Source: Bdellovibrionota bacterium (lineage in GTDB: Bacteria > Bdellovibrionota_C > UBA2361 > CAKMMH01). Taken from it: 64,000 nt of DNA. The stretch is from positions 32,001 to 96,000 of the forward strand of contig JBMNLI010000007.1 of NCBI GenBank assembly GCA_050952645.1, read 5' to 3'. Position numbers and translations under genes: made by a program. Positions within the stretch are counted from its first letter, which is position 1. Each line of letters starts with the position of its first letter. The notes beneath the pieces are model-generated. The model was given only the letters and a program-made list of their open reading frames with translations, had not been told where the DNA came from and made no database searches. This document shows positions 2,802 through 35,366 of the stretch, in pieces.

Positions 2802-3002
2802 AACTTAATATAGCTGATTTAAAAGCTTTGTTTCTTTTAAGTTTTGCATAATAATGAGGTTAGCAAGCCATGTAGAATGGTGCTAACCTTAGCAAAACTT
2901 TAGCAAAACTTAAAGACGTAAAACTAAAATTTTTTTAAAGAGATGCTAAAGTTGTCCTAGTATCTCTTTTATAAGTAAAAGTTCTTTTACGGTATAATTT
3001 TT

Positions 3003-3066
3003 GGGCTTCGTGGGGTGAGTGATACTAATTTTAAGGTCTTAAACCTACCTTAAAACGTGAAGAGCC
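3003..3066 (+). mobile_element. Short copy of dispersed hairpin/MITE family
   Basis: GGGCTTCG..CTTAAAACGTGAAGAGCC flanked by direct repeat TAATTTTT (2995-3002, 3067-3074); nearly identical to 35171-35234. Confidence 0.7.
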
Positions 3067-5131: not shown

Positions 5132-8100
5132 GTGCAAGCTCTATCTAAAGATTGTCCTACTATATGTAAATTTTGGATTACGGCTTATAATTTAGCATTA
5201 TCGAAAAAGGTGGCAACCCCTAAGCAACTAGGCTTTAAATATTTTGAGTTAAAAGGGGAGCCGTGTATAGCTAAGTATGCTATTTTAATTCCTGGTATAA
5301 AATTAGATAATGATAGTATAAAGACTACTAAACTCCCTGGGAGTTTGTGGAAGAAGGAAGAATATGCAGATTTTGTTCCCGTTGATAAAGAAAGTGAGAC
5401 GATAAAACTTAGGACAATGAAGGGAGGGAAGATTTTTATTAAGTCTGGTATAATATTAGATATATTTAAGTTGTTAGATGAGGAGTTTCCTGTAGCAGGT
5501 TCGTTTCATGTAGGTTTTTTTAGGACTGCGCAAATTTTCGATACATCTAGTTCACCTAAGGGGAGTTCGTCTAGTAGTAGTTCATCATCTAGCAGTTCAT
5601 CGTCTAGTAGGAGTAGTAGTTTATCTAGTAGCAGTGCATCTAGTAGTAGCAGCTCATCTCTAAGTTCTTCTAGCAGTAGTAGTTTAAGTAGTTCTAGCTC
5701 ATCACCAAGTAGTAGTTCGTCTAGTTCTTTAAGTTCAAGCTTATCATCTAGTAGTAGTAGTTCATCTAGTAAGAGTTCGTCTTCTAGTAGCAAAAGTAGC
5801 TCATCTAGTTCTTCTAGCAGTTCTTTAAATCCTAGTTCATCTTCTAGTAGTAAGAGTCCGTCGTTTAGCAGTTCAAGTAAGAGCAGTTCTAGTTCTAGTA
5901 AGAGTTCTTCGCCTAGTAGTAGTAGTTCATCTAGTTCTTTAAGTTTAAGTTCTTCTTCTAGTAAGAGCAGTTCGTCTAGTAGCAGTTCTTTAAGTTCTAG
6001 TTTATCGTCTAGTAGTAGTAAAAGCAGTTCTAGTTCTAGTAAGAGTTCATCGTCAAGTAGCTCTTTAAGTCCTAGTTCAAGCAAGAGTTCTTCATCTAGC
6101 AGTTCTAGCTCTTCATCTAGTAAGAGTTCATCGTCATTTAGCAAAAGCAGTTCGAGCAAGAGTAGTTCGCCAAGTAGCAGTTCTTCTAGTTCTTTAAGTA
6201 GTAAGAGTAGCTCACCAAGTTCATCAAGTAAAAGCAGTTCATCACCTAGTAGTAGTTCTTCTTCTAGTAGTTTAAGTAGCTTGCCACCAGAGCCTCCTAT
6301 TACATCGCCTAGCACTAGTTCTTATTCTAGTAGTTCTTCGTCTAGTAGTAGTAAGAAGCCACCACTACCGCCAGTAAATCCATCTAGTAGTAGCTTTTCT
6401 AGTGAAAGTGAAGATTCCACTTCGAGTGTGCCAGTTGGTGGCTGCAAACCAGATGAAGATTTTTGTTTTGGATTATGTTGCAAGAAAGGAATGTGTCGTT
6501 ATATGACCGATGGGCTTGGAAATGTTATTGCTTGGTGGTGTGATACTCAAAGTTCTTCAGCATCATCTTTACCGCCAGTAATTATAAGTGAAAGTTTTTC
6601 TTCTTTCTCGAGTGAAAGCTCATCAGAAAGTAGCTTATCTAGTGAGAGTTCGTCTGAGAGTTCTTTTGAAAGTGTTTCTGAAAGTGTTTTATCGAGTGAA
6701 AGTGAAAGTTCGGCTAGTTTTTCTTCAGCGTGTCCTCCTGAGAGGCAGTGTGATTATCTTTGTTGTGAAGAGGGGGAGGAGTGTAAAACGTATTTACAAG
6801 AAAATGCAGACGGTGAGATTATTCCAATTCCTAGTTGTGAGAAAGTGAGTGAAAGCTCGTCTAGTTTTTCTTCTGAGACGTTTAGCAGTGAAAGTTTATC
6901 TAGTGCTTCTTTAGCGTGTCCTTCTGATAGGCAGTGTGGGCATTTATGTTGCGAGGAAGGCGAAACGTGTAGTATAGAGGTGCAGGAAGAAGGAGAAGAT
7001 ATTTATATCGTATATAATTGTGTAAAAGAGAGTGTAAGTTCTAGTGAAAGCTCTTTAAAAAGTGTAGCTTCGAGCGAAAGCTTAGAAAGTAGTAGTTCAA
7101 GCAGTTCTTCTAGTTCTTTAAGTTCTAGTTCGAGTAAGAGTAGCTCACCAAGTTCATCATCTCCAAGTAGTTCAAGCAGTTCTTCTAGCTCTTCACCTAG
7201 TAGTAGCAGTTCGCCTAGTTCTTCTAGTAGTTCTAGTAAAAGCAGTTCGAGTTCATCTAGTTCTAGTAAGAGTAGCTCGCCTAGTTCATCTAGTTTAAGT
7301 AGCTCTTCTTCTAGTTCATCATCTTCAAGTAGTTCAAGCAGTTCTTCTAGTTCTTTAAGTTCTAGTTCATCATCTAGTTTTAGTAGTAGCAGTTCTTCTT
7401 CATGCAGTGAAGGTACGGAAATGTGCGGAGACGTTTGTTGCGACCCTAATAAATGTAATTCTGATACTTGTTGCCCTAACGAAGATCCTGTGCCGTGTGG
7501 AGATGAGCCGTGTTGTGATAGAAATCAATGTAATTCTGATGATTTCTGTTGCCCATCTGATCAAGTTCCGCTAAATGATGAGTGCGTAGATCCTTGTGAT
7601 AATTGTTGCGATGATAGAGAAGATACTTTTGTATATACAAATTCTTATGGGACTGAAATAACTCGTTGTTGTCCTCAAGGGACTGTTTATCGCACACCAC
7701 AAGGTAATTTATGGTGTGATGCTAACACATGTCGAAATGGTGATGGAACTGTAAATGCGACAGAAAAGCCGTGCAAAGTTGGTTATATTTATTCTTCGCA
7801 TCCTCACCCTGTTTTTGTGTGTTGTCGCCCAGAGCTATGCATAGCAGATGAAAATAATCCAGGTTATTATATATGCGATAACCAGTCTAGCAGTAGCGTT
7901 TCTTCTTCGCAAAGTCAAGATAGCGATAGCTTATCTAGTAGTAGTTTATCTTCAAGCAGTAGTTCATTATCTAGTAGCTCATCTAGTAAAAGTTCTTCTT
8001 CAAGTAGTAGTTCGCTATCTAGTTACTCATCTAGTAGCGATACTAGTAAAGAATCTATTTCCTCTGCTTCTATTTGTGTAAATGGAAGTGATGCAAGAGG

Positions 8101-31724: not shown

Positions 31725-31818
31725 ATAAAGATTATATTTAATAAAGATTATCAAAGAATAAAGATTATTAAAGAATAAAGATTATTAAAGAGTAAAGATT
31801 ATAAAGAGAATAAAGATT
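31725..31818. repeat. Degenerate tandem repeat, ~16-17 bp unit around AATAAAGATTATTAAAG
   Basis: About 6 imperfect copies, no spacers. Confidence 0.75.
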
Positions 31819-31934: not shown

Positions 31935-32294
31935 ATGGAATTAAAAAAATATACGGAAATTTTAAAAGATATAAAAAAAATAAAAAATGTAAAAAATGTA
32001 AAGATAAGTAAAACTAAGGTGTTATTATATGCGCCATCTATAAGTTTAATTTTAGCTGGAAGTTTCGTTATCTTTAGCCCTACTATGCTAAAATTCTTTT
32101 TAGCTTGTTTCCTAATTTTTTCAGGAATATTATCGCTTAAAGTTATTAAAAGGATTTACACTACGAGAAATAATATCCTATCAATTTTAGGACAAATCGA
32201 TGGACAAATCCTTATACACAAACACCATCCTGCCGAAGAAGATGATGATAGATTGTTCTCACAATATTCAAATAAAAAGAATATGTTTCATTAG
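31935..32294 (+). CDS. Hypothetical two-TM membrane protein
   Basis: 119-aa ORF with a hydrophobic hairpin, co-oriented with the Cas4-like gene. Confidence 0.65.
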   Translation: MELKKYTEILKDIKKIKNVKNVKISKTKVLLYAPSISLILAGSFVIFSPTMLKFFLACFLIFSGILSLKVIKRIYTTRNNILSILGQIDGQILIHKHHPAEEDDDRLFSQYSNKKNMFH

Positions 32295-32333
32295 TAAAAA
32301 ATATAAAGTTAAAAGTATTTTTTTAATTTTAAT

Positions 32334-33254
32334 ATGATTAAAAAAGTTAACGGAAAGTATATCATTTCAGCTGGAGAGCTAGGCATATACGTCGTTTGTC
32401 CTTACGCTTGGAAGTTAAAAAGCGTTTCTCATAAAAAACTAGAAAATGCTGATGTGCAAAAAGAATCTACGGAAGGAAAGAAACTCCATAAAGAATGGAG
32501 TAAAGAAACGGAAGATATTCATATCTTAAGAACTAAAAAAAGTTTAGTTTTAGGTTTACTTTCTGTCGTTATATTATCTTCTATTTTTTTTCTGAAAGAT
32601 AAAATTTTAAAATCTTATAATATAGAAAGTATAAAAACTCTTAAACTTAAATCTACCTCCATTTTATCGTATTTAATAAATGAAATAAAAATAGTCTTTG
32701 CAGAACTCGGCGAACTCGATCTCGATGTTTTAATGTTTGTCGTGTTAACTAGCATATCGTTATTTGTCGTGTATATCGTAAGTGTATACGTTAAAAAACG
32801 TGCAGTAGTAGCTGGAATAGATGAGAAAAGTAAACTTTTAGCATTAGAGCATAGTAAAATTTTACCATCGAAAGATTATATATCTTACACTCAAGGAATT
32901 TCTGGGAAACCCGATGCCGTAATAAAGGAAGGGGCTTATTTTATTCCAGTAGAGATAAAACCACTAGCTAAAAAATTAAGAGATCGCTACGTATATCAGC
33001 TTTTAGTTTATATGAGACTTATAAGTGAGTTTAAGAAAAAAGATGTTCCTTATGGATATCTTATTTTAGGGCCTAAAGCAAAAAGAGTAAGAATTAACAA
33101 TTTACCTGAAAGGCAAAAAAACCTTAATACGTTCTTGTCCGATATGAATGATATTTTAAATAATAAAAAAGAAGCCTTAGCAAGCCCTTCAGTGCAAAAA
33201 TGTTCAAAATGTAATGTAGCAAAATATTGTAAATTTAATGCTTGCAAGCCTTAG
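32334..33254 (+). CDS. Cas4-like PD-(D/E)xK nuclease with 4-Cys cluster and two inserted TM helices
   Basis: ISAGEL..VCPY; GKPDAV, PVEIK, QLLVY; CSKCNVAKYC; hydrophobic SLVLGLLSVVILSSIFFL and VLMFVVLTSISLFVVYIVSVYV. Confidence 0.8.
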   Translation: MIKKVNGKYIISAGELGIYVVCPYAWKLKSVSHKKLENADVQKESTEGKKLHKEWSKETEDIHILRTKKSLVLGLLSVVILSSIFFLKDKILKSYNIESIKTLKLKSTSILSYLINEIKIVFAELGELDLDVLMFVVLTSISLFVVYIVSVYVKKRAVVAGIDEKSKLLALEHSKILPSKDYISYTQGISGKPDAVIKEGAYFIPVEIKPLAKKLRDRYVYQLLVYMRLISEFKKKDVPYGYLILGPKAKRVRINNLPERQKNLNTFLSDMNDILNNKKEALASPSVQKCSKCNVAKYCKFNACKP

Positions 33255-33275
33255 ATGTGCTTTACTAAATTTATT

Positions 33276-33380
33276 GGTTCTTTCACGTTTTAGAAAGGCT
33301 TTGGAAAAATTGTTTTTGGCTTCGTCGATGAGTGATGCTAATTTAAAGGTCTAAAACCCACCTTAAAACGTCAAAGAACT
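33276..33380 (+). mobile_element. Medium copy of the hairpin/MITE family
   Basis: GGTTCTTTCACGTTTTAG...CTTAAAACGTCAAAGAACT with internal GGCTTCGTCGATGAGTGATGCTAAT; no clean TSD. Confidence 0.7.
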
Positions 33381-33435
33381 AAATAAATTTAAATTGCTAC
33401 ATGAAGAATAAAAAATATCTTTCGATAAACTTTAT

Positions 33436-34969
33436 ATGAGTTTATTTAAAGATATTTTTACAAAACGATTTTTAACACGAATAAAGAAGAATTATCCATC
33501 GCTGTTTTTTTGTTTCTTTTTAATTTTAGGACAGTTTGTAGCTTTCTATTTAATTAGATATCAAAATATCTATCTTATTTTGTTTATAAATTTAATTTTT
33601 ATTTTTTTCGTTCTTATAAAAAAATATATTTTTATAAATTTTTTTATAATAGGTATATTATCATTTTTCTTACAAGCAAAGAGTTTAAATTTTAAAACTT
33701 ATACTGAAGATGCTAGCTACTTAGTTAAAATTATATCTGATATTCAAAACAGAGTTTCAAATAGGATAAGTTTTACAGTTGAGGTGTTAGGAGTTCAGGA
33801 AAAAAGGCAAAGAGGTTTTAAAGAATTATCTTTTAAGAAAGAAAATTTTTTAATGTATTGTGGAGCCGTGTATCTTCCGTGGAAAAATATTTCAGAAGCT
33901 AAGAAGGGGGATGCTTTAATTATAAAAGCAAAGGTAAAAAATGTTGAGCCTACTTTCAATCCTATTTCTTATGAATTGTATCTTTTAAGAAAAAGTATAA
34001 GCAAAACTTGTGATATAAAATTTGCAAAGATTATAAAAAAGCGAAATGATAATAGCTTATCTTTAAGGCTTAATAAAAAAATAAGAAATAATGTTGTAAA
34101 AGTATTAGGCGACAAGGAGTCTTCTGGGCTTTTCTTATCGATGACTATTGGAGTTAGAAATCTTTTAGCAACCTTAACTGAAGAAAAGTTTAAAAAAGTA
34201 GGTCTTACGCATTTGCTCGTTGTATCTGGCTATCAAGTATGTTTAATTTATTTTAGTATTCTTTTTATACTAAAGCAGATTTCTAGAATTTTCAAAAAGC
34301 TTTATTATTACTATTTTATCCAATATGTTTATAAAATTTTAGCACTTTCAGGGAGTATCTTTTTTGTGCTTCTTTCAGGGGCAGATTCTTCGAGTATTAG
34401 AGCTGGTATAGCGATTATTATCTTAAATATTGCTACGATGTTTGAAAGAAATAGCTCATTTGCAAATAGCATTATTTTATCATTTTTTATTATGCATCTT
34501 CTTTTTCCTCTTTGCATTTTAGACCCAGGTGTGGCACTTAGCTATGCGGCACTTATAGGAATTTGGCTTGGAAGCTTTAGTAAGAATAGAATTAAAAGCT
34601 TTCTTCTTATATCTTTTTACGTTTATATAGCTACTAGCACAGTGACGCTAATATGGTTTAAACAAATCTCTTTTATATCATTTTTATTAAATATATCTGT
34701 TGCACCGATAATCTCTTGGATAAGTTGTTTTCTAGGTTTTTTAGGAATATTTTTAAATTTTACTATCGATAAGCCTGGGATATGTATAAAAATGCGTATC
34801 TTTTATTTTAGATTTATTTAAAAAATTCGTATTTTATATATCAGAGTTTAATTTTATATCTTACGTTTTTGATACCATGCCAATAATTTTAGTTTTAATC
34901 TTTTTTATTATTATAATAAGAGCTTTTTTAAAAAGGATTAAGTATTACGTCTCTTTTTGGAATTTGTAG
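33436..34969 (+). CDS. comEC: ComEC/Rec2 competence channel without metallo-beta-lactamase domain; frameshift near 34790
   Basis: GLTHLLVVSGYQV, SSIRA, DPGVALSY; frame stops at 34821, but removing one A at ~34790 continues a hydrophobic tail to TAG 34969. Confidence 0.82.
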
Positions 34970-35010
34970 CCTATAAGCTCCCCCTAAAAAAGAAATTTAA
35001 CTAAAATTTT

Positions 35011-35234
35011 GGTTCTTCACGTTTTAGGTGGGTTAGAAAAATTGTTTTTAGGGGTTAGCTTAAAAGAAAATTGGCTTTTATAGAAAACTATCTATAGTTT
35101 AAAGAAAAATTACAACTATATTTAAAGTAATTTATTTTATGCAAATTTCTTTAAAGTCAATTTTCTTTTGTGCTTCGTCGAGGTGAGTGATACTAATTTT
35201 AAGGTCTAAAACCTACCTTAAAACGTGAAGAGCT
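35011..35234 (+). mobile_element. Longest copy (224 bp) of the hairpin/MITE family
   Basis: TIR GGTTCTTCACGTTTTAGGTGGGTTAGA / TCTAAAACCTACCTTAAAACGTGAAGAGCT; AAAATTTT on both flanks; nested inner stems. Confidence 0.8.
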
Positions 35235-35366
35235 AAAATTTTTTAAAGTATCTCTTTAAAGTCAATTTTATTTAATTAGTAAGTGTGTTATATTTTTATT
35301 GACCGACGCAAAATCACGAAAATCGCGAAAATCATTAAAATGTTATAGCAAATAAATGTTATAATT

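Follow-up and report, generated by a model that had tools for sequence, protein, structure and literature searches.

The gene at positions 32334–33254 (plus strand) of a stretch of Bdellovibrionota DNA encodes a 306-residue nuclease that, by its sequence motifs, cysteine layout and predicted fold, is a member of the Cas4 family, carrying two predicted membrane helices inside the nuclease sequence. The stretch, referred to here as the window, comprises 64,000 nucleotides (nt) of a Bdellovibrionota bacterium (assembly GCA_050952645.1, contig JBMNLI010000007.1, positions 32,001–96,000 of the forward strand). In many relatives the same enzyme is encoded as two separate genes. The known Cas4 enzymes are soluble, and to most of the solo-Cas4 type no role has been assigned. 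The family of the window nuclease is a real and apparently undescribed variant of solo-Cas4 with a two-part membrane layout, a predicted membrane-bound nuclease that a bacterial phylum has kept among its core genes. The initial annotation had proposed a solo Cas4-like nuclease, tethered by a helical hairpin, that forms a dedicated DNA-uptake module with the product of the adjacent comEC gene. The first half of this proposal is supported; the second half is not, and the fusion of a two-gene pair had been overlooked.

Anatomy and predicted fold of the window nuclease

The protein contains Cys22, P193-D194, E207-x-K209, Q222-xxx-Y226 and Cys290/293/299, and thus has the layout of one N-terminal and three C-terminal cysteines around a PD..ExK..QxxxY core that had been noted initially. 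C22, C290, C293 and C299 are invariant across the family alignments; a further cysteine, Cys304, is unconserved. The protein matches the Pfam profiles Cas_Cas4 (E 7e-9) and PDDEXK_1 (E 1e-6) and the profile TIGR00372 (E 8e-18), and the Cas4 profiles of PADLOC match it as well.

Along the plus strand, the gene can be divided into an "A" half and a "B" half. The A half (32334–32597, residues 1–88) holds the Cas4 N-terminal segment with Glu15, Cys22 (32397–32399) and His52 (32487–32489) and ends in the first hydrophobic helix. This predicted transmembrane helix (TM1, 32541–32597, residues 70–88) represents the tail anchor of half A, with its N side predicted to be cytoplasmic. It is followed by a predicted outside loop of 44 residues (32598–32729), which is the fusion junction and includes the N-terminal helix of half B, and by the predicted TM2 (32730–32786, residues 133–151), the signal anchor of half B, with a predicted cytoplasmic C side. 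The catalytic core of the B half (32787–33254) contains D194 (32913), E207 (32952), K209 (32958), Q222–Y226 (32997–33011) and Cys290/293/299 (33201, 33210 and 33228). The loop is the longest among 75 fused homologues, in which the median length is 18 residues.

The presence of two long hydrophobic helices between the first cysteine and the catalytic core, also noted initially, is borne out by Kyte-Doolittle hydropathy, which peaks at 2.24 over residues 70–88 and at 2.56 over residues 133–151 in 19-residue windows. The CRISPR-linked Cas4 of the same genome reaches a maximum of only 0.61. The assignment as membrane helices is based on this hydropathy, on charge bias and on the helical hairpin of an AlphaFold2 model. 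The model, calculated from 115 sequences (mean predicted local distance difference test score, pLDDT, 87), has long helices at residues 39–93 and 130–159. Its residues 5–306 align with residues 5–203 of the Cas4 structure 7mi4 (Z 17.7, root-mean-square deviation 3.3 Å over 186 residues), so that the two ends of the protein are predicted to come together in a single Cas4 domain from which the hairpin loops out. A Foldseek search with the predicted model matches Cas4 8d3l at E 6e-6. His52 aligns weakly with the 8d3l sequence (E 0.065) and may, judging from the alignment, be equivalent to His62 of SSO0001, which is described as a ligand of the catalytic metal (PMC13621843, in part).

Split and fused forms of the enzyme

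Among the best 30 loci, 24 carry two genes, A and B, and six a single fused gene. Gene A encodes 83–92 residues with an invariant A-x-E motif, a cysteine, W-x-L and G-xxx-H, and its product ends in a C-terminal hydrophobic helix. The product of gene B has about 180–220 residues (248 in one locus, where the start is unsure) and has a hydrophobic helix at its N-terminus; the PD, ExK and Q residues and its three cysteines are invariant in all 24 rows. The hairpin of the window protein is the fused junction of the tail anchor of A and the signal anchor of B. The two genes have their own start codons, their frame offsets are 0, +1 and +2 in 6, 7 and 11 loci, respectively, and the gaps from stop to start range from −13 to +43 nt, which implies two genes and not recoding. 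The occurrence of all three offsets and this range of gaps rule out that the split results from programmed frameshifting or from read-through of a stop codon. A pseudogene or an assembly error is likewise ruled out, because the split point and the residues are conserved in two phyla.

In 78 further loci, which partially overlap with the first set, 40 are split and 38 fused. Outside the window's order, the class contributes 20 loci from one or more orders, here called the second order; four of these loci are split and 16 fused. A tree of nuclease cores (56 of 129, thinned by identity and with the helices excluded) requires eight changes between the fused and the split state by parsimony, at least three of them forced by strongly supported branches, and is compatible with either fusion or fission as the direction of change. 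Longer fusions of B were absent among 7995 scored candidates of 397–2000 residues, which is weak evidence.

Split pairs also occur beyond the window's phylum. A profile of A proteins matched 592 cluster representatives, and 124 of the 147 newly listed top matches had at most 160 residues. With a profile of distant A proteins, 604 matches were obtained, and the organism names in this list were all Chloroflexota or Anaerolineae. Eighty metagenomic loci, which carry no taxonomy and are redundant, were labelled Chloroflexota-type by the likeness of their A proteins. In 50 of the 59 with enough flanking sequence, B lies within 700 nt after A; the remaining nine of these 59 have no B within 700 nt downstream. 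One Chloroflexota-type B half (L191:1585-2106) matches the PADLOC profile DruK at E 5e-10 over profile positions 112–235 of 326.

The charge distribution around the helices was compared by counting lysines and arginines in the 12 residues on each side. A proteins have more of these residues on the N side than on the C side in 20 of the 24 sequences from the window's order and in 33 of 33 of the Chloroflexota type; in B proteins the surplus is on the C side, in all 23 and all 15 sequences, respectively. TM2 of the fused proteins shows the C-side surplus in 73 of 75 cases. According to the positive-inside rule, flanks rich in lysine and arginine mark the cytoplasmic side, and both soluble halves are therefore predicted to be cytoplasmic. 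The catalytic domain is thus predicted to lie inside and not outside the cytoplasmic membrane, and together with the model, the charge bias supports the initial proposal that the hairpin keeps all four cysteines on one, presumably cytoplasmic, face.

The window protein was matched in 38 of 41 relatives, and the B-half profile in 110 of the phylum's 124 genomes, with a single match in almost every case. Among the 14 genomes with no B match, 11 were chosen for a search, and neither A nor B was found in any of them; the A profile recovered four of four known carriers. Where the record of a close homologue has a name, it is in most cases Bdellovibrionota or a similar one. Among look-alike Atlas clusters, Thermoplasmatota is the commonest taxon of those with 265–282 and 382 residues and Methanobacteriota of those with 264–269 residues. 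Plasmids gave no match to the nuclease family, and viral contigs contained no member of it; one viral-contig match was rejected as a soluble PD-(D/E)xK protein by its sequence.

The genes of the family lie outside CRISPR-cas loci in contexts with no recurring cas genes. As initially noted, the window contains neither cas1 and cas2 nor an array: cas1 matches are confined to another contig of the genome, C16, and no CRISPR-like array emerged from a scan of the window for exact repeats. The CRISPR region on C16 (G000:C16:25072-49415) comprises an array of about 112 repeats, the type I-C genes cas4-cas1-cas2 and a second cas1. The window nuclease is hence not CRISPR-linked, and the genome holds a separate cas4 beside cas1 and cas2.

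With truncated and duplicate rows excluded, all 73 B halves from the window's order and all 37 of the Chloroflexota type have intact D-E-K residues. The former count is partly built in, as the search used an ExK pattern and the filter required three cysteines; the 24 of 24 in the B alignment are free of this bias. The second order, of which all 20 loci passed this filter, differs: the four cysteines are present in 20 of 20 proteins and the membrane helices are visible in the sequences, D-[ED]-K is found in only eight of 20, and the metal-binding histidine is retained in one of 20, being replaced by arginine in 17 and by lysine in two. Judged by these residues, the second-order branch is likely inactive or altered, and the window protein has the full catalytic set. 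Recurring large genes neighbour the second-order loci (L141–L160) in 12, 7, 7 and 7 of 20 cases.

CRISPR Cas4 proteins (TIGR00372, PF01930; 7mi4, 8d3l, 4ic1) share with the window family the fold (Z 17.7 and 17.2), the one-plus-three cysteines, PD-(E)xK, QxxxY and the N-terminal G..H segment. Unlike them, the family has two hydrophobic helices after the G..H segment and is often encoded by two genes; the window nuclease has no cas1, cas2 or array nearby, and the family is single-copy across the phylum. In lying outside CRISPR loci and in its mostly vertical inheritance, the family resembles solo-Cas4 (PMC5704561, PMC12501428). A monophyletic solo-Cas4 has been described for many Chloroflexi, with one each listed for Anaerolinea and Caldilinea (Hudaiberdiev et al. 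2017, PMC5704561, in part), and these proteins may be B halves. The words "transmembrane" and "split" are absent from the main texts of PMC5704561 and PMC12501428, and no description of a membrane-anchored or split Cas4 was found in the literature searched, with subscription journals and bioRxiv supplements outside reach. The solo-Cas4 of M. mazei, as presented in passages of PMC12501428, is a soluble oligomer lacking the RecB motif, unlike the window family. The iron-staple nucleases AddB, AdnA, Dna2 and Exo5 also place one cysteine far from the other three (Z 10–14.5) and tolerate long insertions between the first cysteine and the core, as in the window family. In contrast to it, they are soluble, mostly helicase-linked or eukaryotic, free of membrane anchors and not split. 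As no Pfam family matches the small A genes, annotation hides one part of the enzyme and presents the other as "CRISPR-associated".

Genomic surroundings and the comEC gene

Downstream of the nuclease gene lies a comEC gene (33436–34969, plus strand) with no metallo-beta-lactamase (MBL) domain, a neighbourhood that is local to the window's family. Its first frame runs from 33436 to a stop at 34821 (461 codons), and the last approximately 58 codons lie in another frame up to 34969, the reading frame being broken by one extra base at 34788. This base is absent from contigs of two other studies, so that the frame is broken either in this strain alone or by an error of the assembly; in the possible source run, the contigs are interrupted at 34788. 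After repair, the product has about 510 residues, matching the intact ComEC of three family relatives (510–513 residues), and the initial description of a ComEC ending at this length without an MBL domain was accurate.

The short form is the rule in the phylum. ComEC open frames reach at most 634 residues in 39 of 41 and 33 of 33 genomes having a match, and an MBL motif was found in none of 60 comEC loci including 1.5 kb flanks. Between the ComEC core motif and the stop, 57 of the 58 loci scored have 203–310 residues; the frame of the remaining locus is longer and shows no MBL motif. ComEC was MBL-less wherever scored in the phylum, including genomes in which neither A nor B was found, and all six genomes of one family, f28, combine a short ComEC with the absence of matches to either half. 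As no MBL-bearing ComEC was found in the phylum, the presence of the nuclease has no contrast in MBL loss with which it could be correlated.

The expectation that homologues of the nuclease gene would be linked to comEC was largely not borne out. Both genes could be placed in 62 genomes, and in five of these comEC is no more than 2.5 kb away from the nuclease gene, namely in four of the window's family, in all of which the two genes are co-oriented, and in G017, in which they are divergent. In the other 57, both genes are on the same contig in two, at distances of 392 and 586 kb, and on different contigs of fragmented assemblies in 55. G017 is not sister to the window's family in the ComEC tree, which makes two separate placements near comEC likely. 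With flanks of up to 6 kb, comEC occurred in three of 78 loci, and it had no match in the 80 Chloroflexota-type loci, a weak test given short loci and a distant query. The usual neighbour of comEC itself is another gene, found in 18 of 30 loci, which we take to be M48 peptidase-like from a motif.

Across the order, the nuclease genes usually stand beside other genes: c1 upstream in 65 of 78 loci, and c2 in 56 of 78, mostly divergent. The divergent c1–c2 pair is conserved in the order as a whole and as a rule immediately precedes the nuclease genes (e.g. L064:4082-5545). In the window's genome, c1 and c2 are together on contig C10 (G000:C10:184336-186293), away from the nuclease gene, which implies that the nuclease gene and the c1–c2 pair were separated in the window's family. 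The c1 product has about 170 residues (model pLDDT 87), and the c2 product has an Arg/Gly-rich N-terminus and many invariant residues. Neither has a Pfam or PADLOC match, the c1 model has no Foldseek match at E 0.001 (best Z 6.2), and c2 has no sequence match in the PDB. Three further genes, c8–c10, follow the nuclease pair in 18–20 of 78 loci; they have no Pfam match (e.g. L063:9733-11958) and are together at G000:C15:9507-11914 in the window's genome. The order of the nuclease gene and comEC in the window is thus most likely a local gene order.

In Chloroflexota-type loci, a TRAX homologue (AfTrax 3zc1, E 1e-24) stands directly upstream of A on the same strand in 55 of the 69 loci whose flanks are long enough (e.g. 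L204:109-1522), and recN, NAD kinase, recJ and ssb recur near the A–B pair. In the window's order, Pfam PF01997, which scores bacterial TRAX weakly, found TRAX in none of 41 genomes, and a six-sequence bacterial TRAX profile, run with no positive control, found none in the same 41. TRAX is therefore not an obligate partner there.

The initial annotation had also pointed to a small gene with two membrane helices upstream of the nuclease gene. This gene is present (31935–32294, plus strand; 119 residues, two hydrophobic segments) and adjoins the nuclease gene in the window's family alone. It was rejected as a third part of the enzyme, its five weak homologues outside the family being on contigs other than that of the nuclease gene. 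Between the nuclease gene and comEC lies a dispersed inverted-repeat element (33271–33395) resembling a miniature inverted-repeat transposable element (MITE), of which blastn finds 106 pieces across the genome. Two relatives have shorter stretches between the nuclease gene and comEC, and these are, judged by eye, unlike this element. Further MITE-like copies are at about 35009–35049, 35166–35237 and 2999–3061, so that comEC is flanked on both sides. The element folds into a long hairpin (−30.9 kcal/mol, calculated without a shuffle control).

Possible function of the two-part nuclease

A membrane-tethered housekeeping nuclease that trims or recycles DNA ends at the cytoplasmic face of the inner membrane, independently of ComEC, is the reading we favour, with slightly better than even confidence. 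Half A would give the first Fe-S cysteine, the motif-I glutamate and the metal-binding histidine and would end in a tail anchor; half B, opening with a signal anchor, would provide the remaining three cysteines together with PD-(E)xK and QxxxY. Both halves would insert into the inner membrane, pair and assemble one cytoplasmic Cas4 domain. In split loci, the cluster and the active site would form only once the two anchored halves meet in the membrane, so that an Fe-S cluster and an active site would be built from two polypeptides; in the window's family, the halves would be joined via an outside loop, giving the hairpin. DUF83-type Cas4 proteins are described as degrading single-stranded DNA (ssDNA) 5' to 3' (PMC12501428, in part), and by analogy the substrate may be ssDNA ends.

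Several observations weigh against the housekeeping nuclease. The second order loses catalytic residues and yet keeps the gene, which implies that cleavage is not the whole function there. The solo-Cas4 of M. mazei is stated to cut with no need for its cluster (PMC12501428, in part), which weakens the idea of gating by the cluster. In fused proteins, the charge bias of TM1 is weak, with 36 N-side against 19 C-side surpluses in 75. The neighbours differ by lineage (c1 and c2, TRAX, others in the second order), so that the context gives no single pathway, and the gene was found in none of the six genomes of family f28 and is therefore likely dispensable.

The loss in the second order raises the alternative of a mainly non-catalytic Fe-S membrane tether or sensor for nucleic acid, in which cutting is secondary and can be lost. 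There, all 20 proteins keep the four cysteines and the helices can be seen in the sequences, 12 lack D-[ED]-K and 19 carry arginine or lysine in place of the histidine, and a basic residue at the metal site would suit DNA binding without cleavage. Such a role is unlikely, given the full catalytic set in the window protein, in the 24 B halves of its order and in the 37 of the Chloroflexota type. The TRAX genes upstream of A could point instead to a machinery for the decay of RNA or ssDNA that the enzyme would anchor in the membrane, in concert with a TRAX/C3PO nuclease in genomes that have one. TRAX is reported from Chloroflexi, and NeTrax of Nanoarchaeum cuts single- and double-stranded RNA and DNA (PMC5100593, in part). 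This arrangement is quite unlikely, as the two TRAX searches in the window's order, with the limits given above, were negative, and the link in the Chloroflexota-type loci, which are kin and redundant, may be inherited synteny.

That the nuclease is a partner of MBL-less ComEC, processing incoming DNA during uptake, now appears improbable. The main point in its favour is the co-orientation in all four family genomes together with the second, divergent placement in G017, to which the MBL-less ComEC throughout the scored phylum and the presence of dprA in the window's genome may be added. The ComEC MBL domain and pneumococcal EndA are membrane-linked DNases near DNA uptake (PMC12455585, PMC13539106, both in part), and EndA provides a precedent for a separate membrane nuclease. 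Their folds are unrelated to that of the window nuclease, which is not tied to comEC. ComEC proteins without an MBL domain have been described before, among them that of the transformable H. pylori, for which no substitute nuclease is known (PMC12455585, in part). The active site of the MBL domain is located at the periplasmic entrance of the channel (PMC13539106, in part), and a nuclease predicted to be cytoplasmic is on the wrong side to replace it; topology alone would still allow a cytoplasmic role on ssDNA that has already been imported. Adjacency is rare, comEC and the nuclease gene each have other usual neighbours, short ComEC persists where neither half is found and where the enzyme looks inactive, and the window's genome, which is 94% complete, has no ComEA-type HHH_3 match. 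The dedicated uptake module is thus not supported, and the nuclease gene can no longer be counted as a strong candidate for the nuclease that MBL-less ComEC systems lack. A role where phage DNA enters the cell, in anti-phage defence or in the processing of CRISPR spacers, is very improbable. The closest folds are those of CRISPR Cas4, the PADLOC Cas4 profiles match, and a position at the membrane would suit injected DNA; against this stand the single-copy, near-universal presence in the phylum, stable contexts of uncharacterised and housekeeping genes, the separate type I-C cas4 on C16 and the lack of members on plasmids and viral contigs searched.

Beyond the housekeeping nuclease favoured here, a wider picture can be put forward tentatively, and it is possible though somewhat doubtful. 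It supposes an inner-membrane Cas4 family that is active only when two anchored halves share one [4Fe-4S] cluster and one active site, serving an unrecognised membrane-side nucleic acid pathway in several bacterial phyla and in archaea, coupled to TRAX in Chloroflexota and reduced to a non-cutting Fe-S tether in one branch. The natural fused, split and catalytically degenerate versions offer ready-made controls for the function of a membrane-held Cas4.

A promoter scan gave 21 sites where 22 were expected. Elsewhere in the window, positions 31740–31805, in the intergenic region before the gene of the small membrane protein, contain three to four copies of a 17-nt repeat. A long low-complexity repeat region at 5546–8037 has a serine-rich coding appearance and perhaps encodes a large surface protein.

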